Under the pieces are notes generated by a model. That model saw nothing but the letters and a program-made list of their open reading frames with translations. It was not told the origin of the DNA and searched no databases. Below, piece by piece: positions 9,701-54,300 of a stretch of 64,000 nt of DNA. Every line of letters begins with the position of its first letter. Within the stretch, counting starts at the first letter, position 1. The translations under genes and the position numbers were made by a program. This DNA comes from Plasmodiophora brassicae (taxonomy: Eukaryota): positions 62,001 through 126,000 of the forward strand of contig CP145418.1 of assembly GCA_036867785.1 (NCBI GenBank). Direction: 5' to 3'.

Positions 9701-12503
9701 TCACGGCGCAGTTCAACGGCGACCGGATCCTGTTCGCCGACCGCATCCTCGACGTCATGCTCAAAGGTAAGAAGGGTCATGACACACCCTCCCCCCACCC
9801 AGTTCGGCTGACCTCGCCCGGCGCGAAGGCAAACGCGGCATGCTGAGACAGCTGATCAAGAAGGTCATGCACCGGAGCCAGGCGCGCCGGTTCCTGTCGT
9901 CCAAGTTTGTGGCGCTGACAGCGTCCTCCCTGGTAGGGCAGCGCATGCTGAGGTGCCGGCGTCGGCAACGGCAACCGTATCGTAACCGGGTCGGTGTGCG
10001 TTCAGTTCTGCATGTCGATGACGCCGGGCGACGACGTGACGGGGACGCCGCCGCGCATGGTCATGGAGTGGCGCCTGTCGCTGCAGTCGATCTCGAGCAT
10101 CGCCATGAGCCCGTACGCCGACAACGTCTACGTCATCGAGTCGCATTCGGCGATCCCCGTCGTGCAAAGGTCGGCCCCAGCGCGCGTGCCGCATCGTTGC
10201 CTGTGTGCGACCGCCAGGGCACCGACGATCCCCTCTCCCGTAGTTGCAGGCGCAAGACGGAGCTGATTGGCCTGATGGTACGCCAGATCAAGCAGTCGTA
10301 CCGGCAGCAGGTGCCGCTCCACATCGCGCCGGCCTGGCCGCTCACCGTCACCTACAAGGGGCACGTGTCGCGGATCGAGGTGCGCTTCCAGCAACGGCCG
10401 GACGGCGACGTCGAGGAGACCATCCAGGTCGACAATGGCAACATCGTGGTCCGCGTCGGCCATGGCATCCCCGGCGCCATGTTCCAGGCGCCGTTCCAAC
10501 CGAGGGTAACCTGGGCGTGTCGCCCCCCTCGTTTCCGGGTGGTGATCGACCGGCTCACCCTCTCCCCCGTAGGAGATCGACAGGACGGTGCAGGTGCGCG
10601 ACGTGCTCGAGGCCATCTACGAGTACAACGGCAACGGGGTCGACGAGCTCAGCATCCAGATCGGCGATCAGCTGTACCTGTTGCTGGACGACGGCGACGG
10701 GTGGTACCGGGCGGAGCTCAAGAACGGGCAGAAGGGGTACATCCCGGCCTCGTACGTCAAGCGCGTGCCCCGGGGTGCCAAAGCGTCGCCACCGCCGCCG
10801 CAGGACCATCGTCCCGCGCCGAAGGCGGGCCCCAGCAAACATGCAATGGCGAGCATCATGTCGGATACGGACGGGGAGGCGGCCGACCCACGGCCGTACG
10901 TCGGCGGCGGCGCCGGGAAGGACGAGAACCCGAACGCGCAGGCCATGCAACGGTTGGCGTCCGCGATGAAGTCGCCGACAGGGGGACCCGGGCCCAGTGC
11001 CGGCGCCCGAACCCAGACGTGGCGCGCTCAGCACGGGCAGCAGCAGCAGCAGGAACAGGTCGGCCGGGTGCAGGACGACGACTACGCGGATCCGACACCA
11101 GGGCCACCAGCGTCCAGGCCGACAGCGACGACCGGCCGGCCGGCAGCGTCACACCAGCCTGATCAGCAGCAGCAGAGCCCACAGAGGCAATCGTCGCGGT
11201 ACCCCGTTCATGAGCCGGCCGGCGCGGGTCGTCCTGGCGGGCAAAGGCGCCCCCAGCAACAGACGGCGGACGCCAACGGGGATGCCCAGCCCCGGCTGAC
11301 GGTCAGGACGACGGTTCTGCCGAAGAAGGCGGCGGGCGGCGGCGGTGGCGGCCCTGCAACATTGCCGGCCAACGTCGTACAGGAGTCGTGGCCGGCTGAC
11401 GACGTGCCGGATTCCCCAGCTGATTACGAGCCGCCACGGGCGCCTCTGCCGCCGCCATCGGCCGGTCCAAGAGCGCGGGCGGGACCGACAGGTACGGCTG
11501 CCAGGCAGAACCCTGCCAAAGGTCCTAGTACGAGAACGTTGCACGAGGCGGATGACCCGCCGTCTGCGTCTGAGCCCGCGGCTAAGTCGCCGCCCAGAGG
11601 AGGGGGCACGAAGCGGATCAAGGGCAGCGGCGCTGAGATCAACCCGGACGAATGGGACGACGTGCCCGCCCCGTCGCAGGCGGGGGTGAAGGGCCGCGGG
11701 CGACCACCGCCGACGACGAGAAGCCCAGCTGGGAGCCGAGCCGATACGACGCCGGCGCCCGCTGCCGTTCAATCGAGAAGGATGGCACCCGATAGGCAGG
11801 CCTCGTCGAAGCAGCCGGCAGCGCCGCCCGACGAGTGGAACGAGACGGGGGCGTCCGAACCCGTGCACAGCAGGGCAACGGCCAGGCAGCAGCGGCAGCA
11901 GCAATGGCAGCAACAGAAGCCGCCCCAGGCGCAAACGCATCTGCAGGCAGCGGCCGCGTTCGAAGAGGTTCGAAGGTGGAAGGGGAGGGGCAGGCAGACA
12001 GGGCTGACTCGGTGCGTCCAGGTCGAGTGGAGTGATACGCCCGAGCCGGTGGTCAACCGTGTGTCCTTCATCAAGCCGCGGACGACGGGCGGCGACCCGG
12101 GGCCTCTGCCGAAGACGACGGGCGGTCGTGCCCAGAACCCGATGTTGGCCGACACGGTACGAGTGGCGTCCGGCAAACTGGCGGCGCCGTCTCGCAACGC
12201 GGCCACCGGGTCAACGCGAATCTCCCAGAAGGCGACGTCAGCGGCGACCGCGTCATCCCCGTCGGCGATCGCCGCCGCCAGCGCATCGGCGCCGAGCGGC
12301 GGCAAGCTGGACCAGGCCGGGCAGCCCGACTGGCAACCCTACTTCGACGGTACATGCGAACGAACGGCCGCCCATCGTGCGAACTGACGGGGCTACTCTC
12401 TCTCTGTGTGTATGTGCTGTGCTTCGCAGAGTCATCCAACGCCTACTACTGGTACAATGCACGAACAGGCGAGTCGTCCTGGGACAAGCCGCGCAACGCG
12501 TAA
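6717..12503 (+). CDS. MYO1: Class I myosin: motor, IQ, TH1, SH3, Pro/Gln-rich tail, C-terminal WW domain; many short introns
   Basis: [10 protein letters not shown]-loop, [46 protein letters not shown]1-like [18 protein letters not shown]3 (AIYEY...ELSI...GWY...GYIPASYV). The last spliced exons give [28 protein letters not shown] (WW). Confidence 0.93.
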
Positions 12504-12845
12504 TCGCCGGCGACTCGTCGGATCGTTAAACGATGAGGTACCCCCGAGGCGGCGCGCGTAACAGCAGACGGCGAGGGACGTCACGCGAACGTCTCTGCCG
12601 TACTATACATTCATAACTGTTCCATTATCTCGATACGCACGCCCAGCTCGTCGCAAACTGCCCCACAGACCACTAGGGCCCTGTGGTCAAACAACCCGGT
12701 AGGTGGCCGACTGCTGGACAAGCTGCCGCTAGTCGGCCCATACCATATCCACCTACACGCCAGTGGCACAAGTACTGATAGAGACTCTGTCCGCCACACG
12801 TCGTTGTCAGTGTATGTGTGTGTGTGTGTAACGGAACGGTTGTAT

Positions 12846-14167
12846 TCACGCTCGGCCCAGTGGTGCAGCACGAACTGGTGGTTTCGGCCCGCGTGTCCAC
12901 ACATTGCGGCCCTTGCCTGTGTTCCCTGCTGGCCTGTCCTCCTGCCGCCGCTTGTGCCGAGGACGTCGTCGCCGGTCTCCCCGCACTGGCGGCCGGCGAG
13001 GCGCGCCGCGATCCTGGTCCGGCCCCTGCTCCTCCTCCACGGTCGCGTCGTACCAGGAGGTTCCTGGCGGGATCAGGATCGCGAGCTCGGCAACGATATC
13101 ATCGAATTCCGTGTCACAATCGGGAGCCCAGGCACCGCGTGTCGACGAATGAATACTCTCGCCGGGGCGCTTCTCTTCCCGCTCAGAGCTTGTCGTCGTC
13201 GTCGTCGTCGTCGCCGCTGGCAGCGGGCCCGTCGCTGGGTCGACTCCCGTGGTCACGGCGAGCAGCAAGGCGGCCGGCTCGTGATCAACGTACTGGATTT
13301 GGGGCGACTGGACACGAACGATCGTGCGCGTCACGACACGCCCCAGGTCTTTCGGTACCGTGACGACGAAGGGCGAGCCTGATGTGCGCATCGGGATGTC
13401 GTCCTGCACCGGCGCCTCTTCCTGCTCCGCGCACGTCGTCGTCGTCGCCGCTGCTGGCACCAGGCCCGTCACCGTGTCGACTCCCTTGTTCTCGGCGAGC
13501 AGCAAGGCGGCCGGCTCATGATCAACGTGGTCGATGACGGGCGACCGGACACGAACAATCGTGCGCATCACGACACGCCCCAGGTCTTTCGGCATCGCGA
13601 CGACGAAGGGCGATCCTGCTGTGCGCATCGGGACGTCGTCCTGACCCGGCGCCAAGGGCATGCTCTCGTGTCGATCCGTACAGGCGCGGCTGTCGGGCGG
13701 GCACGAGCGCGAGGACATCGCGTTCGCCGTCGCCTGCGATGCCAGGGCGACGGTCTCGACCTTGCAGGCCTGCGACGACGTCGAATGCACATCGGCAGGA
13801 CCGGAGGGTGTGGCGTCTGGAACGCATTGACCAGGTCGTCAGCGTCGACTGGATGCTAACGGCGTTGGGGTTGCGACGTACCGTCGGGGTAGAACGGGCG
13901 AAACGCGTCTGCGTTCGCGCGCGACCACGTCTGCTTCGCCATCTGCAACGTGCGTGTCAGGCGTCGCTGTGGTCCGATCCCGAGGCTGGCAGCGCGAACC
14001 TTATACAGGCGGAGCAGGACGGGCGCCCTCATCCCTGCAATGATACGGGCGCCTGCGTCGGCGACGCTGGACGCAGCTGGGCACGTCGTCGTCGAGGCCA
14101 GGACGCGGCCGGCGACGTCGACGACGCAGCGCCTGACCTTCGATGCGAACACCTGCAACTTTGGCAT
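12846..14167 (-). CDS. Hypothetical repeat protein, left palindrome copy (2 internal repeats); intron 13817-13881
   Basis: Mirror image of the right-arm gene: ATG MPKLQVF..., GT-AG intron, then an open frame with QDDxPMRTxGSPxVVxxPKDLGxVVxRTIVR repeats. Confidence 0.6.
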
Positions 14168-15098
14168 CGTTGCTTCGCGTGTGATCAACCGTTCGGTCGT
14201 CGACGAATTAACTGACTGGCCTGAATCAGGCGTAACGTGGACGCGACGTCGGAGAGTAATGGGCAAGAATCTGCCAGGGGCCGGTTGCCGAGGAGTACTA
14301 CAATTGCACTGCTAGGCGGTCGTCAGCCCCTCATTGTTCCCCCCGTATAGTGAACCCTGTAGGATGACCTTGAGGATGCGCGATACGGCACAGGCCAGGC
14401 CTCCACTGATGACTGACGCCCTCCTGGGTACCCAGCCGTGGTTGGTCGGATGCGGATTGCATGCCTGACATGCTGGATCCTGGTCCCGTCCATTCGTGAG
14501 AGCATGCATTCAACAGCAGAAAGACCCATACTCGTTGACGTACCGCAACGTCGTCATTGTCCGAAGTGGACGAGCGCTCACTCCTCGCGAGGGCCGCCGA
14601 CGAATCCCGCGGCACCATGCAGGGTGGCTGAATCATCAAGGTGCGCTCCCTCATGTTCCCGCAAACCTGCTACAACGCCGGTGCTGACACGAACCACCAG
14701 AGCAGCAGCGCGTGGTCATATACCTGGACAGTGGGTATGGGTCTTTCTGCTGTTGAATGCATGCTCTCACGAATGGACGGGACCAGGATCCAGCATGTCA
14801 GGCATGCAATCCGCATCCGACCAACCACGGCTGGGTACCCAGGAGGGCGTCAGTCATCAGTGGAGGCCTGGCCTGTGCCGTATCGCGCATCCTCAAGGTC
14901 ATCCTACAGGGTTCACTATACGGGGGGAACAATGAGGGGCTGACGACCGCCTAGCAGTGCAATTGTAGTACTCCTCGGCAACCGGCCCCTGGCAGATTCT
15001 TGCCCATTACTCTCCGACGTCGCGTCCACGTTACGCCTGATTCAGGCCAGTCAGTTAATTCGTCGACGACCGAACGGTTGATCACACGCGAAGCAACG

Positions 15099-16669
15099 AT
15101 GCCAAAGTTGCAGGTGTTCGCATCGAAGGTCAGGCGCTGCGTCGTCGACGTCGCCGGCCGCGTCCTGGCCTCGACGACGACGTGCCCAGCTGCGTCCAGC
15201 GTCGCCGACGCAGGCGCCCGTATCATTGCAGGGATGAGGGCGCCCGTCCTGCTCCGCCTGTATAAGGTTCGCGCTGCCAGCCTCGGGATCGGACCACAGC
15301 GACGCCTGACACGCACGTTGCAGATGGCGAAGCAGACGTGGTCGCGCGCGAACGCAGACGCGTTTCGCCCGTTCTACCCCGACGGTACGTCGCAACCCCA
15401 ACGCCGTTAGCATCCAGTCGACGCTGACGACCTGGTCAATGCGTTCCAGACGCCACACCCTCCGGTCCTGCCGATGTGCATTCGACGTCGTCGCAGGCCT
15501 GCAAGGTCGAGACCGTCGCCCTGGCATCGCAGGCGACGGCGAACGCGATGTCCTCGCGCTCGTGCCCGCCCGACAGCCGCGCCTGTACGGATCGACACGA
15601 GAGCATGCCCTTGGCGCCGGGTCAGGACGACGTCCCGATGCGCACAGCAGGATCGCCCTTCGTCGTCGCGATGCCGAAAGACCTGGGGCGTGTCGTGATG
15701 CGCACGATTGTTCGTGCCCAGTCGCCTCAAATCGAGTACGTTGATCATGAGCCGGCCGCCTTGCTGCTCGCCGTGAGCAAGGGAGACGACCAGAGGGTGT
15801 CCCCACGATCGTGCCCGCCCGACAGCCGCGCCTGTACGTATCGGCACGAGAGCATGCTCTTGGCGCCGGTTCAGGACGACATCCCGATGCGCACCGCAGG
15901 CTCGCCCTTCGTCGTCACGGTGCCGAAAGACCTGGGACCTGTCGTGACGCGCACGATCGTTCGTGTCCGGTCGCCCGTCATCGACCACGTTGATCATGAG
16001 CCGGCCGCATTGCTGCTCGCCGAGAACAAGGGAGTCGACACGGTGACGGGCCCGCTGCCAGCGGCGGCGACGACGACGACGTGCGCGGAGCAGGAAGACG
16101 CGCCGGTGCAGGACGACGTCCCGATGCGCACATCAGGCTCGCCCATCGTCGTCACGGTACCGAAAGACCTGGGGCGTGTCGTGACGCGCACGATCGTTCG
16201 TGTCCAGTCGCCCCAAATCCAGTACGTTGATCATGAGCCGGCCGCCTTGCTGCTCGCCGTGACCACGGGGGTCGACCCAGCGACGGGCCCGCTGCCAGCG
16301 GCGACGACGACAACGACGACGACAAGCGCTGAGCGGGAAGAGAAGCGCCCCGGCGAGAGTATTCATTCGTCGACACGCGGTGCCTGGGCTCCCGATTGCG
16401 GCACGGAATTCGATGATATCGTCGCCGAGCTCACGATCCTGATCCCGCCAGGAACCTCCTGGTACGACGCGACCGTGGAGGAGGAGCAGGGACGGGGCCA
16501 GGATCGCGGCGCGCCTCGCCGGCCGCCAGTGCAGGGAGACCGGCGACGACGTCCTCGGCACAAGCGGCGGCAGGAGGACAGGCCAGCAGGGAACACAGGC
16601 AAGGGCCGCAATGTGTGGACACGCGGGCCGAAACCACCAGTTCGTGCTGCACCACTGGGCCGAGCGTGA
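15099..16669 (+). CDS. Hypothetical repeat protein, right palindrome copy (3 internal repeats); intron 15385-15449
   Basis: ATG at 15099. Intron GTACGT...TTCCAG (65 bp, CTGAC branch-like site) joins exon 1 in frame to the 397-aa ORF. The frame stays open in both diverged copies. Confidence 0.62.
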
Positions 16670-17059
16670 ATACAACCGTTCCGTTGCACACACACACATA
16701 CACTGATATGGTCCTGACAACGACGTGTGGCGGACAGAGTCTATCAATATTTGTGCAACTGGTGTGTAGGTGGATATGGTACCGACTACCTCGGCACCAT
16801 GCACGGTCGGTCAGACCCGGCAGAGACGTCAGCGGGTTCGTGGTCGTCGACAACGCCGTCAGAGGTTTCGTGGAGCCAGCTCACTGGCGGGACGATAACA
16901 CGCTTTGCTGATCGTCGGTCGTGCCACAGCAGCCACCAGCATGAGGTCGATACGTCGGCCGATCAGATGATCTGAATGATGTCATAGGGAATATGAACCG
17001 GAACACGGAACGTTCGTTGTCAAGCCTGTCGGGGGATCCTCCTCGTCGCAGCAACCGGG

Positions 17060-18287
17060 ATGTGCCGCCGCGGACTTCGCGCAGTCCGTGACGGCTGCCA
17101 GCGCGATCCGCTGCTGACGATCGCCGCCTCCGCCATCGCCTATATGGGCCTGGTGGATCCTCCCGCCTGGCACGGCCTGCCTGACACCAGTCCGCTGTCC
17201 TATGTCGACCAGATGATATTGGCGCCGATGGTCCGCGTCGGCACCCTGCCGATGCGCATTCTGGCGCGACGCTATGGGGCCACCATCGTCTACTCCGAGG
17301 AGATCATTGATCGCAAGCTGTCATCGTGTACGAGGTACGCCGCTCCAGATGGACGCGTCGAGTACCGGTGCACGCGTGAGGGGCCTCACCAACCCGTCCT
17401 CGTGACCTACCCCGGTGAGCGCCTTGTTCTACAGATCGGCACGAACGATGCTATTCGGGCGTTGTCCAGCGTCGAAGTCGCCCATCAGGACATTCGTGCC
17501 GTCGACATCAACATGGGGTGTCCGAAGGCATTCTCGCTGCAGGGCGGCATGGGAGCCGCTCTGCTCACGAAGCCCGACCTTGTGCACGACATCGTCAGCA
17601 CGCTGCGCCGCAACGTGACCGCCATGCCCGTCACCTGTAAAATCCGCCTCCTGGAGTGCGAGAGGCAGACCGTCGAACTCGCTCGCCGTATCGAGAAGGC
17701 CGGCGCCATGGCCCTGGCTGTGCATTGCCGTTATGTCGCCGACCGGGACCGCTACAAGTCGCTGCCCGACCTTGTGCGACCCATCGTCGATGCCGTCGAC
17801 ATCCCCGGTACGTTGCCGCCGGCGCATTGCCTGTCGTCGACACGTGTCTTACGTCCGTTCGCTGCGCTGCTGTTCAGTAATCGTCAACGGCGACGTGTTC
17901 ACGTACGAGGATATCGCGCGCATACGGGAGCGCACGGGCGCCCATTCGGTGATGATTGCGCGTGGGGCCCAGTGGAACCCGTCCGTGTTCCGGAAGGACG
18001 GCCCGGTTCCCGTCTGGGATGTCATGTCCGAGTACCTCCAGCTATGCCAGACCGTCGGCAACACGTTCGCCAACAGCAAGTACACGCTGATGCAGATGAA
18101 GGCGTCGCACTGCCCGAAACCCATGAGCGCGTACGTCAATCGCACCAAGACGTTCGACGCCCTGCGCGCTGACCTGCTCGAGCTGAAAACCGTGCCCGCC
18201 CTGTCCGGGCCGTACTCGCCACCGATCACGCTCATCGAGAGGGACCAGATGGATCCGCCGCTCAAGAAGCAGAAACGGTCACGCTAG
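17060..18287 (+). CDS. DUS2: tRNA-dihydrouridine synthase, DUS2-like (start may be 17144); one intron ~17807-17877
   Basis: ILAPMVRVGTLPMRILARRYGATIVYSEEIIDRKL, LQIGT, DINMGCPKAFSLQGGMGAALL, TCKIR, AVHCR, VIVNGD, MIARGAQWNPSVF. Confidence 0.92.
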
Positions 18288-20755: not shown

Positions 20756-23049
20756 TCAGGTTCGTGGTAGGGAGGCGCCCCAGGTGGTCGTGCCCACGCT
20801 GGAGGTCGTCGTGTGCGCCCCTTGGTTGAACTTGTCGCGCGCGACGCCACCTCGCGCCTCCACGTGCCGGATGTACTTGTCGATCGGGGACGTCCGCGGC
20901 ACGGACGCGATCGTCTGGACGGACGTCGCCGTGCTGAAGTACGACGGCGGCGGCAGGGACGACAGGTCGTGGGCGCCCCGGGTCATGAACGCGCGCTGCG
21001 TGTACTGGAGCGTGTGGCGCCGGCGCCCCCAGTACGTGACAGCGATGGCAGTAAACGCAATGACGAAGGCGGCGATGAAGACCATGAGGACGATCACTTT
21101 CGCATCAACTGCCAGCGGCGGCGACGACGACGCTTGCGACAGCGGCTCTGCGGTACGTGGGCGCGCGGATGACGTCGTACCCCTCCCCAGGTGGCGTTGC
21201 TGACGACGCGCGCGGCGATGTCAGGGCCAGATCGGCGATGGCGTGTATGGCAGGCATCGCTTACCGTCTGCACCTGCCTCATCGTGGACCTGGTCGGAAT
21301 GGCCATGCCGGACGGGGCGGCGCGCTACCAAACGTCGTCACGTCAGCAACGGGCCCGACCCACGCAGGGAGCGACCGTGGGCGTACGCTGGGCGACCGCA
21401 GAGCCCCGCCGCCACGACCCAACGTCGACATTAGCGGGGCCGCTGCCGAAGATGCGGGCGTCGAAGCAGGCGCGGCAGTACCGGGTGCGGGTACGGGCGT
21501 GGCCACCGGTGCGGGTACGGGCGTGGCCACCGGTGCGGGTTTGCTGCGCACGACGGTTGGTGGCACGGGCGTGCGCCCGGGCGTCGGTGCAGGTGTCGGC
21601 CCGAGTGTCGGTGCACGTGTAGGCCCGAGTGTCGGTGCGGCCGTCGGTGCGGCCGTCGGTGCTGGAGTGGGTGCCGGAGTGGGTGCCGGTGTCGGTGCGG
21701 GAGTGGGTGCCGGAGTTGGTGCGGGAGTGGGTGCCGGCGTCGGTGCGGGAGTGGGTGCGGGAGTGGGTGCCGGAGTTGGTGCGGGTGTCGGTGCGGGCGT
21801 CGGTCTCGGAGTGGGTGCGGGCGTCGGCCTCGGAGTGGGTGCCGGAGTGGGTGCGGGCGTCGGCTTCGGAGTGGGTGCGGGCGTTGCTACCGACATTCAC
21901 ACGTGAGTATCGCCGGACGATGTCGCGCCGGCTGCAGGTGCAAGGGACACACGCGGGGAGCAATATGGCAATCCAGACGGGTACAGGTAGGCGCCCTGAG
22001 GCGGGGCGTACGGGATGCAGGTCAGCGACGACATGCCCGTGTCCATTGTGATGCCCCTGAACGGGTGCACGCCCCGAATCAGCAACAAGGTCGCGTACGT
22101 TGCCATGCGCGCGGACGGACTCGTAGGATGCGGACCCCATCACGTTCATCATGGCGAACAGGTTCACAGGTAACGACACCAGCTGGGCGTTGTCGTACAG
22201 AGCCCTATGACGAACGCCAACACGTTAATCGGCAGTCGAGCACGGCAGCGTTGTCCCACGACGCCCGACAACGTGTTCAGTGTGCCGGCCACAACGTCGA
22301 ACGTGTGGTCGCCAACCGATTGCAGTACGTTGTTGTTCAGGTATCTGCCCACGTCGGTCAGCGCGATGGTGTCAGCTGAGGGCAGGCCCGTCTGACTGAC
22401 ATGGCCGCCAGGGAATACATGCCGACGAAGGCATTCTGCGTCAGTGACACGATCTTGTTATCGTTCAGGTACCTATGGAGACCGCAGGTGTCCACACGTC
22501 AGGCGGCGGTCGCCTCGTCGACCACGAACGGGGACGTACAGGGCCTGGACGCCCGAGAACGAACCCAGGGCGCCGTCGTTGATGCCGGTGATGTCGTTGC
22601 CGTTCAGGGCCCTGCGCGCCCCCGCGTGCTCAGTGTGCGCAAACGCAAAGCAGCAATGAGAAAACGGTGTACAGGACTTGGATGGCGCCCAGGTTCGACA
22701 GCCCGGCCCACCAGGACGAGTCGACGTTCCCTGTGGAGACACACTCGCCGATGAGTCGCGTGCGCGGGTCGCGTGTCGCTGCTGATCAACCGCATCCCGA
22801 CCGCTGATCAGGGATCCCTGCGTGGGGAACTCGCTGCAGGGGGAGGGACGCACGGGTCAGTGAATCCGCTCCCGGGCCACGCGCGCCAAGCCGACACACG
22901 AACAAGGTCGTCGCCGTGCAGGCATTGGGGAGCGTTGCGGCGACGCGCTGGCAAAGGTTGTCGCCCCGGACCCCGGTGCACATGATGAGCACGACGACGG
23001 CCATGGCAGTCGCCTGCCGGTTCGGCCTTCGGCGGCGGCGGCTCGACAT
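20756..23049 (-). CDS. Type I membrane protein: signal peptide, leucine-rich repeats, PTPA mucin-like stalk, TM helix, short cytoplasmic tail; multi-exon
   Basis: Hydrophobic N-terminus ([15 protein letters not shown]); LRR-like [30 protein letters not shown]; (PTPA)n tract; [25 protein letters not shown] followed by GRRR. In-frame GT-AG introns were found between stalk and TM. Confidence 0.75.
21590..21890 (-). repeat. 12-bp coding tandem repeat encoding (PTPA)n
   Basis: Repeated GGAGTGGGTGCC/GGCGTCGGTGCG units on the + strand. Confidence 0.95.
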
Positions 23050-42767: not shown

Positions 42768-45700
42768 TTAAGTAGAAGTCGTCGCTTCCGGCGCGTGCTG
42801 GGGCGCCTGTTGCCGGGATGGCCGGGGACCTTCGATACCCGCGACCATCTGCCGGGTTGTTCGTCTGGACGGGCGTGGCGCATCGCTGCGTCGCGGCGCA
42901 TCAGCGACGTTCTTGGCGTCGTTCGCCCGCTCGGCGCCGTCGTCCTCGTCGTCGTCCGGGTCCTCGAAATCGTCGTCGTTGTCGCCCTGGATCTTGCGGA
43001 CGATCACCTTGAGCAGGTCGAGCGGCAGGACGATCAGGATGGCCCACATCCAGGCCAGCGCCGCCAGCCTCCACGAGATGCCCATGAACATGGTCCGGAT
43101 GGAGAACATGGTGACCGGGCCGAAGCCGTACACGCCGATGAACGTCGCGATCGTCTGCGCCAGGAAGAACGCCGCCAGCATCGCCCGTGGCGGCCGCGAC
43201 GCGAACACGGAGCCGCGCGTGCGCGTCACGAAGATCGTCAGCTGGCTGCTGACGCTGACGATGATGAAGATCAGGGCGCGCAGGCGCGCCAGGCGCCCTT
43301 GCTGGATGTGGCAGACCTCGACGGCCAGCGCCTCGTGACATGGCCACATGATGTCGCCCTGCAGGCTGTACGTCTGCTTGTAGTACTCCCAGATCGCGTC
43401 GTCGTACGACACGCGGGGCGGCACCGGGCGTAGGAAGTTGCCCGCCTCGCACGGGGACAGGTCGGCGCGCGGGAACCGGAGCTCCCAGTTGCAGTACGGG
43501 TCGCTGTCCGGCCCGACCCGGTACGTCCCGTCGAACGCCTGCAGCGGCTGCACGCCGAACACCTTCGGGAACAGGGGCGTGTTGCGCGCCAGCGAGAACA
43601 GGATGATGGTGGCGAACGCGAGCCAGAGGGCGGCGACGGCCGCTTGGCCGATGACGCGCCCCAGGCGCCATCGCTGCGGGCGCCGGGCGACGCGCTGCCG
43701 GTCGGTGGCGATGACGACCATGGTGGCATCGTTGACGACGACGATGAAGATGACGGCCGTGGCCGGGTAGTACCAGTTGTACGCGATCGTCAGCAGGCCG
43801 AACGTCAGGGCGATGCGCAGGGCGGACGCCATCGAGTACGTCGCGTACGCGCGCATCCGCGCCATGGCCTGGCGCGACAGGCGGATCGCGGCCGCCAGCG
43901 ACGACAGCCCCGGGCGCACCGACACGAAGTCGGCGGCCGACCGCGCCGGCGCCGTCGCGCCCGCCAGCGCCACGCCCACGTCCGCGTGCGACATGGCGGG
44001 CGCGTGCGACCCGGACGTGCCGGTCGCGGCGACGATCGGCGCCTCGTCGCGCGCGTCCTCCTCCTCCGTCGGCGGCTCGGCGTCCGGGTCGGCGCCGGCC
44101 TGCGCCGGCGCACTGCGCAGCGACTGCAGCGCCTTGATGCCGTCGACGATCGTCACGTACTGCTCGGACTTGACGCTGGCGTAGTTCGTCCCCGCCGGGT
44201 CGTCTCCGATCGTGAACGTCTCCGACGCCACCTTGACGGGCAGCGCCGGCAGGCCGACCCGACCGACCAGGTCGGCGACGGCGTCGGCCCCGTCCGCGGA
44301 CACGACCATGGCCCGAACGTGGAGGTTGTCGACGACGTCTTTCGCGGCGGACGTGTCGTCGTTGTTGCCGCTGCCGCCGCTGCTGCTGCTGCTGTCGTCG
44401 TCGCCTTCGCGCAGGACGGCGACGCCGACAAGCTCCCAGTTGACGTCGCCGAACGGCATATCGGTCGGGTCGCGACTGACGCCGACACCGACGCAGACGA
44501 CGCCGCGCTGCTCTTGCAGGGCGTAGACGTCGTCCAGGACGCGCTGCCGGTCGTCGTCGCCGAGGTACCCGTCCATGCTGACGACGACGTGCGGTGTGCC
44601 GATCGCGACGCGGAACGTGTTGCCGTTGGCGCGCACGCGCACCGAGGCCACGGCGCGTTGCGTTTCAGGCGACCAGGGTAGGCGGTGCGTCAGCTCCAGC
44701 TCGCGCCACAGGTCGTCCGCCTGCGGGCACGCCTCCAGGATCGCGTCCCGTTCCCGGTCGCGATCGTCGTCGCCCGTCCTCGTTGTCGGCATGCCGACCG
44801 CCGCGTAGAACACGACCTCGTCGGGCGAGAACGCGCTCGATGCGATACAGGCGCCGTCGTCGAGGCGCAACGGGCGCTGGACCGGGTCGTGCCCGTCCGA
44901 CGTGATCGCGATGACGTCCATGCCGGACAGCCGGTCGATGGCCTGCAGGCGTCGAGCGACGAACGCGAACTTGGCCATGGCGATGGCGGCGACGGCGCGC
45001 GTCACGCCCAGGACGATCGGCATCGCCAGCGGCATGGCACCGACGATGACGACGAGCGTGTTGCTGACCAGCGACTTCCACGGCTGCTGCCGGGAGCGGC
45101 TGACGGCGATCTCGACGACGACGATGACGCTGGCGCAGGCGACCAGAACGGCCGCCATCTTGGACAGCGTCGGCGCCCGTGCCGGCGGCTCGGCGCTGAT
45201 CGCCTTTAGGTGCCGACCGTAGACCGTGTCGGGCCCGGTGGCGACGACGATTGCCTCCGCCGTCCCCGACAGGATCGTGGCGCCCGCCAGCAGCAGCTTG
45301 CCGGGCGCCTTCTCCACCGGCGCCGTCTGCGACGTCACCGGGAACAGGTCGACGCGCACGGCCCCCTGCGTCGTGATGAGGCAGTCGGCGGGCACGACGT
45401 CGCCGGGCCTCAGGTCGAGGATGTCGCCGGGGATGACGCGCGACGCCGGGACGGTTCGCCAGGTTCCCGATCGCTTCACGGTGCTGTCGGCGGGCAGCTG
45501 GCCGTCCAGGGCGCCCAGGAGGCCGGCGTGGCGCAGGGCGGTGTAGTACGACAGGACGGCGTGCAGGACGCAGAGCAGGGCGATGACGACGCCGTCCGAG
45601 ATGTTCCCGAGGCCGAACGACAGGAACGCCGCCAGGGCCATCAGCAGCGACAGCGGGTGGAAGACGGCGCGGACGGCGCGACGCGGGCGGGAATCGGGGC

Positions 45701-49286: not shown

Positions 49287-50822
49287 CTACCCCATCTTCA
49301 GGATGTCGGCGGCGATGTCCGTCTCCAGGAACCGATGGAAGGCGGCGTACTCGAGCAAGGCACGAAGCTCGGTCCAGGCGCGGTCGAACACACGGCTGTC
49401 GATATCGATCGAGGGTGCCGGCCGCGTGTCGACCTGGGCGCCCGGCTCGAACAGGTTCACGTAGGCGCGGCGAAGCGCACTGGAGATGTTGATCTCGAAG
49501 GGCGCGCCGATCCGGATGAACGTGGTGTAGATCGTGTGCGCGTCGACGACGACCTCGTCGGCCACGATGCGTAGTGGGTCGGTCCATTCGGGTTCCATCA
49601 GCGCTACAATCGATGAATCGCTTCGTTCGCCTGTTGCTGTTGTCGTTGTTGTTGTTGTTGACATTGCAGACAGCAGCGGCCGATCGTGCTGTACTTTGGA
49701 CCATTTCCTGATGAACTGTCGGCGCGCCTCGTGGAACAGCATGGACTCGACGGCGAACTCCTTCTGCAGGTACTCGGTGAAGGCGAGGCGGATCATGTCG
49801 ACCTCGAGTAGCTGGTCCATGCGGCCGTACTGTGGCCCGACACGCGCGTTGGCGCGCCGCGCCCAGTAGACCGGCATTAGCAGCGATACACTGGTCGTCA
49901 CCTTTGTCACGATCCACGTCGACAACCGCTTCATTGGCGTATGCTGTCCGTCTATCCGATACGATTTGCACCCATTAGGACGACCCATATCGAACGTCGA
50001 GTGAGGGACAGGCGCCTACCGATGGGCGGGACGCAGTAGTTGGCGACAATGGTGCCCACGATGCCTATGACGGAAACGGCTGTGATCTCCAGCTGTCCAG
50101 ACGCCGACTCAGTCCCGTTAACCCATGATGGAAGGTTGCGCGTCACCGCGAACTTTGATATGGAACGCATCGTGGCAATTGCCCAGCTGCAGGATGATGA
50201 CAAAGACCATGATCAGGTGCAGGAGGATGACGCTGTTGTTGAATTGTGTGAAGGCGCCGGGCAGGGCGGGCATGCCCTGGCATTCCGCATAGGCAACGGC
50301 CATAACGACGACGTCGATGGCCATCAACCCGAGGAGCACTTTGAACCAGAACGCTTCCTTCACCAAATAGGGACGTGTGGCGAACAGCATATCGGTTCGG
50401 CTGGCCTGGCCCTGCTCAGGATGCGGTTGCACAGACGAGGCAATACGCAAGACAGTGTGCTGCTGTGCAACGGCACCGGTATGGGCGAAGGTGGTGGCGC
50501 TCAGCAGCACTTTCGCCCTCGTCCGCCGATAGTTGCAGTACAGGAACGCGGTGCGCACCAAGGTGCCATGCAGGGGCGTCAGGTTGAAGACGACGGCGGC
50601 GATCAGACTGGCCAGGATCGACTCGGGGTATTGGCTGGCGACCCAGTCGCTATACGGGATCAGGGCGACCAGCACCTCGATGACGATCACGATCGTCGGA
50701 TGCCGCTCCCGGATCGGCGTCCGGTCCCAGTGCCGGACGAAGGCCACGAACATCGCCAGCAGGACCGTGCAATCGTACGCCAGGAAGCCGACCAGCTCCA
50801 CCTGGTCGTCGTGGCTCACCAT
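49287..50822 (-). CDS. 7TM-RGS protein, tandem copy A (two introns)
   Basis: MVSHDDQVEL... TM helices, NCHDAFHIK, then RGS FTEYLQKEFAVESMLF...FIRIGAPFEINISS...FDRAWTEL...AFHRFLET. Confidence 0.88.
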
Positions 50823-50902
50823 GTATCGCTATTCTATCCACCGACGGTCGTACCACCCGGAATCCTGGGCCCGGTCGACATGGTATCTGTACTAGGACGA
50901 AT

Positions 50903-52434
50903 CTAGCCCATCTTCAGGATGTCGGCGGCGATGTCCGTCTCCAGGAACCGCTGGAAGGCGGCGTACTCGAGCATGTGTCGAAGTTCGCCCCAGGCGCGGT
51001 CGAACATGGCCTTGTCGACGACGTCGAACTCAGCCGGGGGCGCCTGTGCGCCCGCTGGTGACTGTTCGACGCGGTCGGGTTCGAACAGGGCCTCGTACGC
51101 GCGGCGTAACCCGCTGGAGATGTTGATCTCGAACGGCGCCCCGACCTTGATGAACGTCTTGTAGATCGCGTAGGCGTCGTCGACAAGTTCCCCAGGAACC
51201 GACCCGACGGGGACGGCCCACTCGGGGGCCATCGACGCCGACGAATGGCTTTGTTCGGATAGCGTCGTCATCACCGACAGGGGCGTGCGATCGACGGCTC
51301 TGGACCATTTCCTGGTGAACTGGCGGCGTGCCTCGTAGAAAAGCATGGACTCGACTGCGAACTCCTTCTGCAGGTACTCGGTGAACGCCATGCGCACCAC
51401 GTCGACGTCGAGCAGGCGGTCCATGCGGCCGTACTGTGGCCCGACTCGCGTCACGCCGCGTCGCGCCCAGCAGACCGGCAACAGCAACGACACGCTGGTC
51501 GTCACCTTCGTCAGCAGCCACGTCGCCAACCGCTTCGTCGTCGAATGCACGTCGCCTGCAGGAGCCACCCGAATCGATTAAAACAGCACACGACGTTGTA
51601 TGGGATCGGGACGCGCGTGTACCCGCAGGCGGAATGACGTAATCGATGACGATGGCTGCGACGAATCCGAGAACAGCATTCGTTGTGATCTCAAACTGGA
51701 TCATGCCCGGAGAGTCAGCCTTGCTGTGCATGCAACGAGGCGACACGAAAGAAAGGGGGCACCTTGATGTGGAACGCGTCGTGGCAGTTGCCGAGACGGA
51801 CGATGAAGACGACCATGAGGATAAGGTGCAGGTAGGTGGCGCCGTTGTTGAACGACGTGAAACTGGCGGGCAACGTCGCCATCCCGCTGCACATCGCATA
51901 GGTGACGGCGATGACGACCAGGTCGGCGACGATACAACCGAGGAACGCTTTGAACCAGAACGTCTCCCGGACGAGGAACGGGTGCGCCGCGAAGAAGACG
52001 TCCACTCGAGTGACCTGCGGTCGCTGCTGCCCCACACGTCCAGGTTGGCCTTGCCCTGCGTTGGAGGTCGCAACGTCTACAACAGGAGGGCACAGGGCGA
52101 CGCCGGTCGCGCTCAGGAGCACCTTGGCTTTGGTCCGCCGATAGTTGCAATACAGGAACATGGTACGCAGCAGGGTGCCATGCAGGGGCGTCATGTCGAA
52201 GATGACAACGCCGACCAGGCTGGCCATTACGGAACCGGGATACTGGCTGACAACCCAGTCGCTATACGGGATCAGGGCGACCAGCACCTCGATGACGATG
52301 ACGATCGTCGGATGCCGCTCCCGGATCGGCGTCCGGTCCCAGTGCCGGACGAAGGCCACGAACATCGCCAGCAGGACCGTGCAATCGTACGCCAGGAAGC
52401 CGGCCAGCTCCACCTGGTCGTCATGGCTCACCAT
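50903..52434 (-). CDS. 7TM-RGS protein, tandem copy B (two introns)
   Basis: Paralogue of copy A with the same intron positions and RGS motifs (FIKVGAPFEINISS). Confidence 0.88.
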
Positions 52435-52528
52435 GCTGCCTCCCAACCCGGACGCAGCGAGCCGCGATCGTACCCAGATCCGTCGATCGTTCGACCCGAC
52501 GCGGGCGTTTACCATGATGTGTACCTAG

Positions 52529-54067
52529 CTAGCCCATCTTGACGAGGTCGGCGGCGATGTCCCCCTCCAGGAACCGTCGGAACGCGGCGTGCTCCAGCAT
52601 GGAACGAAGTTCGTGCCAGGCGCGGTCGAACATGCGGATATCGGTATCGATCCAGATGGTCGGCGTCGGGTCCTCCCCCGAGGGATTCGGGCGGTCGGGT
52701 TCGAACAGGGCCTCGTACGCGCGGCGTAACCCGCTGGAGATGTTGATCTCGAACGGCGCCCCGACCTTGATGAACGTCTCGTAGATCGTGTCCGCATCGT
52801 CGAGGAGCTCATCGGGCATCGATATCAGCCCGGCGGTCATGGGCAGGATTGTCGTCGTCGTTGATGGATCGCTGTGCGATGTGGCCGATGCGGTTGCTGC
52901 TGTTGTGGTCCCGGCTCCGGCTGACTGGGCCTGGCGGCCGAGCAACGTGGACCATCTCTTCGTGAACTGATGGCGGGCGTTGTAAAACAGCATGGACTCG
53001 ACGGCGAACTCCTTCTCCAGGTACGCGGTGAACGCAATTCGAATCACGTCAACGGTGAGCAGCCGGTCCATGCGTCCGTACTCGGGGGCAATGCGCAACG
53101 TCGTGCGTCGCGCCCAGTACACTGGCATGAATAACGACACGGCTATCGTCGTTCTCGTGACAATCCACGCCGACAGCCGCTGCAGGGTCGTGTTAGCCCC
53201 ACCTGCAACCGCCCACGATTCATCAGGGCCAAACACGACGCGCAGGCGGCCGCGTACCGCCTGGTGGGATGACATAGTTGGCGGCAAGGTTCCCAGCGAT
53301 GCCCAGGATGGCGTTAGCTGTGATTTCGAACTGGAACACATCCGCTAAGCACCTGGGTCGATACGCGCCAAACGACACAGTACCTTGATGTGGAACGCAT
53401 CGTTGCAGTTGCCCAGGTGAGCAATGACGACGAACCCGATGAGCAGCTGCAGGACCATACAGGTATTGTTGAAGAGATTAAAGCTGTCCGGTAGCGCCGA
53501 CATCCCATGGCAGGCACCATAGGCGGCGACGACGACGACCAGATCGGCGGCCATGCCAATGAGGTAGACCTTGAACCAGAGCGCTTCCCGCACCAGGGTC
53601 GGGTGCCTCGCGAAGAAGACATCAACTCGACCGGCGCCCTGCCGCTGCAGTACGTTGTCGAACTTGCCACTGGATCCCGGGTGTGGATCCCTGATCGCAG
53701 CGGTGACGCGACGCTTTGTAACGACGGCGCCGGTGTCGGCGGCGCCCAGGAGCACGTTGGCTCGCGTGCGCCGCCAATTGCAGTACAGGAGCAGGACCCG
53801 GATCAGCTCGCCGTGCAACGCCGCCTGGTTGAACGTGACGCTGGCGACCAGGTTGGCGAGGATCGAGTCGCGATACTGCCCCGCCACCCAGTAGCCGTAC
53901 GGGATGACGATGGCCAGGCCCTGGATGACGAGCACGATCTTCGGATAGCGCTCCCGGATCGGCGTCTGGTGCCAGCGCCGCACGAACGCGACGACCATCG
54001 CCAGCTGGACGGTGCAGTCGTACGCCAGGAAGCCGGCCAGCTGCGCCAGGTCGTCGTGGCTCACCAT
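52529..54067 (-). CDS. 7TM-RGS protein, tandem copy C (two introns)
   Basis: MVSHDDLAQL..., NCNDAFHIK, FTAYLEKEFAVESMLF, APFEINISS, ending DIAADLVKMG. Confidence 0.88.
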
Positions 54068-54300
54068 GACGCCGATACCGGACTGTACCCAGATACGTGT
54101 CGCTCCAACGTCGATCCCCCCTGTACGCGTGCGGCGCGAACGCCACCAGCAGCAGACCGTACTGTCGTACGCCAGGGGCGACGCATCGCCTTCACGATGC
54201 TCGTCGCCATCCTCGCCGCCTATTCATAGCGGCGCGCGGGCGGCGTCGTCGTCTTCGCAACCCCTCGCCGGACGTCGCGTCATCATCGCATGGCCCTGCA

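Follow-up and report, generated by a model that had tools for sequence, protein, structure and literature searches.

The palindrome described in this study is located in a stretch of 64,000 nucleotides from the genome of Plasmodiophora brassicae (assembly GCA_036867785.1, contig CP145418.1, positions 62,001-126,000 of the forward strand), which we refer to as the window and whose numbering is used throughout. It extends over about 4 kb and carries one three-exon gene in each arm, both of which point outward. The left gene, on the minus strand at 12846..14167 (exons 14167-14000, 13942-13882 and 13816-12846), encodes a protein of 399 residues containing two units of an internal repeat, and the right gene, on the plus strand at 15099..16669 (exons 15099-15266, 15324-15384 and 15450-16669), encodes a protein of 482 residues containing three. 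Each is interrupted by a first intron of 57 nt (13943..13999 on the minus strand, twin 15267-15323) and a second intron of 65 nt (13817..13881 on the minus strand, twin 15385-15449). The start codons are preceded by 364 bp of duplicated upstream DNA (14168..14531 on the minus strand, twin 14735-15098), and the two arms enclose a unique spacer of 203 bp (14532..14734), the predicted loop of a hairpin.

The most pronounced feature of the palindrome is the abrupt change in the similarity of its arms. Self-comparison of the window and exact alignment define the inner parts, 13550..14531 and 14735..15716, as exact reverse complements over 982 of 982 bases, as described in an initial inspection of the letters (here termed the sequence-only reading), and this identity extends neither inward nor outward. 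The outer parts, at 12730..13549 and 15959..16788, are about 97% identical, which retains the proposed extent of about 4 kb with edges at 12730 and 16788 instead of 12741 and 16791. A global alignment of the arms contains 27 substitutions, none of them within the 982 bp, and four gaps of 249, 9, 2 and 4 bp. The sequence-only reading had correctly ascribed substitutions and small indels to the outer arms but had missed the largest gap, which corresponds to one unit (83 codons) of the internal coding repeat that is found in the right gene only (15710..15958, plus strand) and which starts at most 7 bases from the end of the identity. It had also placed about 360 bp of upstream DNA, a single intron and the entire first repeat unit in the identical part, of which the upstream DNA is retained, whereas the introns number two and only the first approximately 157 bp of repeat unit 1 are included. 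Unit 1 of the left gene is itself a hybrid, whose 5' part derives from unit 1 and whose 3' part from unit 2 of the right gene. The step in identity persists if the 249-bp gap is removed, with 19 substitutions in 711 outer coding bp compared to none in 982 bp (Fisher p = 6e-8), and it thus exceeds chance and what would be expected from the simple ageing of a duplication. Purifying selection was rejected as its source, since introns and upstream DNA are identical as well.

Palindromes of this kind are rare but not unique in the P. brassicae genome. In 592 kb of unselected sequence outside the window (from the genome labelled G000), the longest exact inverted run with arms within 20 kb measures 132 bp. 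An inverted duplication of actin genes (L069-L070, G000:C1:1311500-1322816) has arms of 2191 bp with 4 differences around a spacer of 6936 bp and shows no step between inner and outer identity. Elsewhere in the window, the 203-bp spacer has no match with an E value below 0.6, at which its 12-nt match to the right flank is at chance level, and its predicted fold is not notable (structure z 0.09). No Rfam family was found in 12300-17200, and one 24-nt motif tried against JGI metagenome contigs gave no match. Among mobile elements, a fold-back transposon with terminal inverted repeats was considered, but the genome contains at least two arms and one paralog fragment of 68% identity with no dispersed copies listed, and a target-site duplication at 12730/16788 was not evident by eye; a transposon with long terminal repeats was equally considered and rejected.

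The proteins encoded in the arms have a narrow distribution. The only close relatives found are SPQ98976.1 (P0003, 482 residues), the orthologue of the right gene, and SPQ98977.1 (P0004, 397 residues), the orthologue of the left gene. The two carry consecutive accessions, were deposited from another assembly and share both introns with the genes of the window, in agreement with a two-intron model. Protein searches returned two matches among 8000 candidates scored and two among 1.84 billion representatives, all from P. brassicae. A single old paralog (P0005, 257 residues, 47% identical over the matched part) resides elsewhere in the genome (L003, G000:C8:1288766-1291997), and for this reason the twins, which were proposed to be head-to-head orphan genes and do point outward from each other, are lineage-restricted rather than strict orphans. 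Pfam assigns no family to P0001-P0004 and only a sub-threshold SpoIIE match to P0005, and the Atlas contained no usable match for P0004 or P0005. A small gene flanks the paralog on either side; the products of both have a hydrophobic N-terminus and cysteine-rich repeat units and by eye appear secreted-like.

The integrity of the assembled palindrome is reflected in sequencing data from two studies. Four of the 24 listed runs (X1, X3, X9 and X10) were compared as contigs with the left arm and the spacer. In X1 and X3, which come from two studies and one of which may be the source sample, the arm is represented by one contig of 982 letters that ends exactly at 13550 and 14531 and contains no differences. 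The depth of this contig relative to local single-copy contigs amounts to 1.93 in X1 and 2.17 in X3, where inner arms as divergent as the outer ones would, with variants dropped, have yielded about 1.42. The same depth model predicted 1.49-1.50 and 1.36 for two outer contigs, where 1.55/1.78 and 1.23/1.56 were observed. The opposite-strand joint 14531/14734 is present in X1, X3 and X10, and the joint 13717->13476, which marks the 249-bp indel, in all four runs. The palindrome is thus real, and the depth check proposed with the sequence-only reading does not favour an artefact.

X9 is treated as RNA, on the basis of a guess and of its spliced contig. This contig skips intron 1 (joint 13942/14000) and continues through intron 2, and since it is the sole RNA-like contig crossing intron 2, the splicing of the latter rests on the deposited models and on the paralog. 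Retention of intron 2 would lead to a stop at 13856-13858 and a product of 85 residues; this stop codon is changed in X10. X9 holds both left-specific and right-specific sequence, and its contigs also represent the spacer (14507-14726) and the upstream arm (14305-14527). Its cover is absent in 12300-12709 and low in 14191-14304, and neither such gaps nor contig depths are used here as evidence of expression.

A comparison between haplotypes illustrates how the identity of the inner arms has likely emerged. Over residues 1-165, the two proteins of the window show no differences, whereas P0003 and P0004 differ at 7 positions, and for the outer 234 residues the respective values are 11/234 and 17/234. 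Within the same 165 residues, the arms of the window haplotype are thus more similar to each other than are orthologous arms of different haplotypes, which differ at 2-5 positions. Two residues, S112 and M151, are derived, as repeat unit 2 contains CCA and GTG and P0004 contains P and V at the equivalent positions. Both are found on either arm of the window but in the other assembly on the right-type protein only, and their presence on both arms therefore reflects a transfer between arms after the duplication. The 249-bp indel, in turn, is present in both haplotypes and is therefore older than the conversion tract.

X10 represents a diverged haplotype, with 13 substitutions in about 500 bp of the left flank. 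Relative to the window, the X10 contig that spans 14059-14473 carries 12 substitutions and two one-base gaps, and it is 1.98 times as deep as the spacer contig of this run. Arm-specificity of the 10 listed differences would have led to a ratio of at most 1.51, and the outer-arm contig of the run reaches 1.57. Judged by depth, the arms of X10 thus appear to share other alleles in this region, which supports, but does not prove, a second and independent homogenisation. Elsewhere, at 13547-13770 and 14028-14058, the arms of X10 are split. On its left side, the spacer contig of X10 is extended by 143 unplaced letters, and its overlap with the arm is limited to 2 bases (14474-14531 region), such that the inner boundary and the length of the spacer may differ between haplotypes.

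Together, these observations support the recent arm-to-arm gene conversion put forward in the sequence-only reading, with a slight preference for a transfer from right to left. From residue 88 to its end, the right protein does not differ between haplotypes (15960-16669 compared to P0003), while the left protein and its flank are diverged, which suggests a recombination breakpoint inside the palindrome and implies recombination between haplotypes; a preprint on 192 P. brassicae isolates reports a recombining cluster. In the process we propose, the arms would repair each other by intrachromosomal gene conversion, and one or more recent tracts would have homogenised the inner 982 bp from the edge of the spacer to the first large heterology, the older 249-bp indel. 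That a tract would end at such heterology is what homologous repair would predict. Since dicing would not need perfect identity, the geometry of the palindrome and repair between close inverted copies probably produced the 982-bp identity as a side effect, rather than selection for a switch.

A link between the palindrome and small RNAs emerges from published work. Abundant phased 21-nt small interfering RNAs (siRNAs) have been described in P. brassicae (PMC13547706, 2026), to which the accessible parts of the report assign two Argonautes (AGO) and a Drosha-like RNase III (PbDRL) able to cut long double-stranded RNA (dsRNA), and neither Dicer nor an RNA-dependent RNA polymerase (RdRP); the source of the dsRNA is stated there as unknown, and AGO-mediated silencing by small RNAs of the organism is shown. 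Its Table S6 contains two phased siRNA (PHAS) loci, PHAS21-433 (Ctg_9:1192344-1193448) and PHAS21-434 (Ctg_9:1193651-1195218), which are 202 bp apart and are listed as separate loci by coordinates only. The term 'Inverted' is absent from the main text and supplement 2, and a palindrome is shown in these parts only as source of a microRNA (miRNA; Fig. 2G legend).

The coordinates were lifted over by means of four miRNAs of Ctg_9 that match G000:C9 exactly in reversed order. Ctg_11, initially suggested by one coordinate, was dropped as matching contig in favour of Ctg_9, which was matched by sequence anchors, and miR052b, a multi-copy anchor that implies an offset change of 5.5 kb left of 45 kb, was not used. 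The nearest exact miRNA anchor limits the offset to 1270158-1270234, a range of 77 bases, and both offsets calculated from the two inner edges, 1270183 and 1270182, fall into this range. At an offset of 1270183, PHAS21-434 occupies 12965..14532 (published p 6.1e-9) and PHAS21-433 14735..15839 (published p 2.4e-8). Their inner ends are located at most 1 base from the boundaries between arms and spacer, and the loci span the exons and introns of the arms together with the upstream DNA but spare the loop, which is the pattern that dicing of a fold-back would give. With this offset, PHAS21-432 and PHAS21-435, the two adjacent loci, are placed on previously found palindromes, one on each side. The roughly 1-kb hairpin RNA proposed in the sequence-only reading is thus supported at the level of the locus, with the fold-back precursor itself as a predicted molecule. 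The paralog on G000:C8 would be a poor target of such siRNAs, as none of 1915 21-mers match within 1 mismatch and 5 match within 2.

The association with inverted repeats is shared by other PHAS loci of Ctg_9. Defining an inverted repeat by a stem of at least 50 bp with at least 75% identity, a gap of up to 3 kb and a tolerance of 300 bp, 13 of the 14 loci examined are placed on such a structure (11 of 12 if PHAS21-433 and PHAS21-434 are omitted), compared to 4.1% of intervals placed at random in 656 kb of sampled sequence that include this locus. The 14 loci were drawn from the 16 on this contig (PHAS21-421 and PHAS21-422 had no usable offset) and from 435 overall, with interpolated offsets for interior loci, and the PHAS loci together hold 5,280 of the 78,890 siRNAs reported. 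Lifted-over examples on G000:C9 include 45176-45669, 233905-234623, 345742-346557, 373445-375549 and 702287-702953. A cluster of old inverted gene copies on the same sequence (L024-L025 region, G000:C9:200334-208271), with 67-70% identity, is not listed among the phased-siRNA loci.

The palindrome is closely flanked on either side by coding sequence. On the left, the 3' part of a gene with an SH3 domain (Pfam; 10573..12503, plus strand), which from reading its translation we take to be a class I myosin, terminates 226 bp before the arm. On the right, a dihydrouridine synthase gene (17144..18287, plus strand; Pfam Dus, E 5e-35) is located 355 bp from the arm end, and a contig of X9 reaches about 270 letters past the right arm toward it. 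Elsewhere in the window, a coding tandem repeat with a period of 12/24/36 bp is found at 21484-21892, and three tandem copies of about 1.6 kb with 68-70% identity occupy 49287-54068 on the minus strand. Each of these combines a hydrophobic N-terminal part with a C-terminal part that carries an RGS domain (Pfam E 2e-9 in the one copy scanned), and they probably constitute an array of membrane-RGS genes.

In the reading that we consider to best account for these data, with a probability of roughly 0.75, a gene specific to Plasmodiophora was locally duplicated in inverted orientation, and the resulting palindrome is both subject to gene conversion and a fold-back source of siRNAs. Normally, outward expression of each gene would be driven by the copy of the duplicated upstream DNA that precedes it, and an occasional transcript, for which the SH3 neighbour on the plus strand or antisense transcription from the Dus promoter on the minus strand are candidate sources, would cross arm, spacer and arm. 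Such RNA would fold back into a perfect stem of 982 bp with a loop of 203 nt, followed by a bulge of 249 nt and about 800 bp of stem with 97% identity, which PbDRL may cut processively into phased 21-nt siRNAs, making an RdRP unnecessary. These siRNAs would in turn damp both twin mRNAs, and we tentatively place a partial self-damping, with the twins as the only near-perfect target among those tested for, somewhat short of an even chance.

Several observations weigh against this reading. The siRNA evidence consists of a lifted-over table of locus coordinates from the assembly of another isolate rather than of reads. Where the arms are identical, each read aligns at two places and to both strands, which may bias phasing callers toward inverted repeats and would light up both arms even if only one were the source. 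The right outer arm at 15840-16550 is not called although its left partner is, and PHAS21-423 has no inverted repeat at the thresholds used. In the runs examined, no read or contig bridges arm, spacer and arm, and the contigs carry no strand information, while the intact state of both genes and the presence of a spliced transcript imply that any silencing is incomplete. With respect to conversion, contig depth provides no clean copy number, as its calibration is off by up to 0.28 and thus good to about 0.3, and the ratio of 1.93 in X1 is compatible with one to three hidden differences in 982 bp. The ratio in X10 is reduced to 1.64 if referred to its long flank contig (93.5), and the direction of transfer is obscured by the identity of the right outer arm in both haplotypes (0/234 residues) and by recombination between haplotypes.

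The alternative that survives best departs from the proposed reading solely in denying regulation. If any transcribed fold-back is diced, the siRNAs of a converted palindrome could be a neutral by-product that leaves the twin genes unaffected. This view, to which we assign slightly less than an even chance, is in line with the many unrelated fold-backs that give the same signal, with the intact state of both genes and the presence of RNA of both types, and with the frequent amino-acid-changing differences between the arms (12 of the 19 outer coding substitutions). Conversely, both reading frames were kept in two haplotypes, and the siRNAs would be perfectly complementary to both mRNAs in an organism where AGO-mediated silencing by small RNAs has been described (PMC13547706).

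A second alternative attributes the 982 bp to a recent duplication or a single event of fold-back repair in place of recurring conversion. For the window haplotype alone, a single template switch could account for the data, and the spacer contig of X10, with its unplaced letters and 2-base overlap, hints at a different inner boundary. Since, however, the full duplication of 1.8-2.0 kb and the unit indel are present in both haplotypes, and X10 appears homogenised for different alleles, we regard this origin as unlikely. Improbable as well is the formation of intermolecular sense-antisense duplexes from overlapping transcription. It is favoured by the compact genome, where distances of 226 bp and 355 bp separate the palindrome from its neighbours, and by the RNA-like contig extending toward Dus, but transcripts reaching the inner edges would pair in the spacer too, where the loci stop at most 1 base from its edges, and a chromosome-wide tie to inverted repeats would not be predicted.

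The invertible switch between twin promoters envisaged in the sequence-only reading, where recombination between arms would flip the spacer and change the active gene, has found no support and appears very improbable. The identical 982-bp arms would permit a crossover, and the mosaic of the inner protein (codons 47 and 87 like P0004, 90-151 like P0003) would be compatible with a single past crossover combined with conversion. However, both start codons are preceded by the same 364 bp, and a flip would thus alter nothing within this distance of either. Moreover, left- and right-specific sequence occur together in one RNA-like run, the immediate neighbours, which are among the genes scanned in the window, encode an SH3 protein and Dus rather than a recombinase, and the human palindrome P6 has experienced 3 inversions compared to 56 conversions (PMC3723533). 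Rare historical flips of the spacer, which would not amount to a switch, are plausible, although less likely than not. The suggested extrusion of a cruciform is unlikely for a loop of 203 bp, as, according to a review, forks do not frequently stall at a spacer of 52 bp in eukaryotic cells, and a repeat spaced by 280 bp is stable in wild-type yeast (PMC7999016). Finally, an artefact of assembly or polishing is scarcely credible, since, although contigs drop variants and thus leave strict identity unproven, and one of X1 and X3 is perhaps the source sample, the same contig ends are found in two studies at about twice the local depth, both genes were deposited from another assembly, and the published siRNA loci leave a matching gap of 202 bp in a further one.

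Collectively, the locus connects an oddity in DNA to published small-RNA data and offers a candidate answer to the source of dsRNA that is testable with existing data, and its 4-kb palindrome illustrates concerted evolution within a species, with a tract ending at an indel. It is tempting, if doubtful, to extend this view to a phased siRNA system that would be fed almost wholly by genomic fold-backs, where, haplotype by haplotype, conversion and remodelling of the spacer would sharpen the hairpin anew or blunt it, so that a duplication would become its own dosage brake and isolates would differ heritably in the self-silencing of the twin genes. Our literature search, which reached few subscription papers, returned no account of this locus or of a link between fold-backs and PHAS loci. 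New in this respect are the connection of a hairpin to siRNAs in a rhizarian that lacks an RdRP and the tie of phased loci to fold-backs at the level of a chromosome, whereas the architecture as such is already known from Arabidopsis, worms and flies.

The relation to these systems, as described in the respective papers, defines what is shared and what is distinct. In mammalian palindromes of the Y and X chromosomes such as human P6, arms around a unique spacer are homogenised by conversion with a mean tract of 2068 bp, and inversions are rare (PMC3723533). These palindromes have arms of about 100 kb and large spacers and reside on sex chromosomes, whereas that of P. brassicae, with 2 kb and a spacer of 203 bp, is transcribable as one hairpin. 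In Caenorhabditis, the inverted pairs F44E5.4/F44E5.5 and CBG13231/CBG13232 and the hsp-16 locus consist of divergent paralogs whose arms are more alike than orthologues, for which gene conversion was proposed, and one pair shows the same step from identical inner to diverged outer sequence (PMC1803023). There, the comparison was made between species and involves no link to small RNAs, while in P. brassicae it was made between isolates and the step is pinned to the indel of a repeat unit. Hairpin-RNA (hpRNA) loci of Drosophila, such as hp-pncr009 and 825-Oak, produce endogenous 21-nt siRNAs from inverted repeats, and transcription across divergent paralog pairs, the arrangement seen here, was theorised by the authors to beget such loci (PMC10317233). 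These are dedicated non-coding transcripts that depend on Dicer-2 and act in trans, in contrast to the arms of the present palindrome, which are still intact genes.

The closest known case is VIM4-VIM2 of the Arabidopsis accession Cvi (PMC13213937), where head-to-head paralogs are likewise arranged in an inverted repeat. In both, the first exon and intron are 100% identical in one genotype and less so in another, a short non-palindromic loop forms the spacer, which is polymorphic in the former and may be so in P. brassicae, and small RNAs, for which phasing has been called in the published data, locate to the stem with few on the loop, which in P. brassicae is defined at locus level by lift-over. 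For VIM4-VIM2, read-through transcripts, cleavage of targets and DNA methylation were shown for genes of known function, whereas in P. brassicae lineage-specific genes with 364 bp of upstream DNA in the stem are found in a host that has neither RdRP nor Dicer, and the precursor and its effect are those predicted from the locus. By its anatomy and the placement of small RNAs at locus level, the palindrome fits the hairpin-siRNA class that is exemplified by VIM4-VIM2, PAI1-PAI4 and the hpRNAs.

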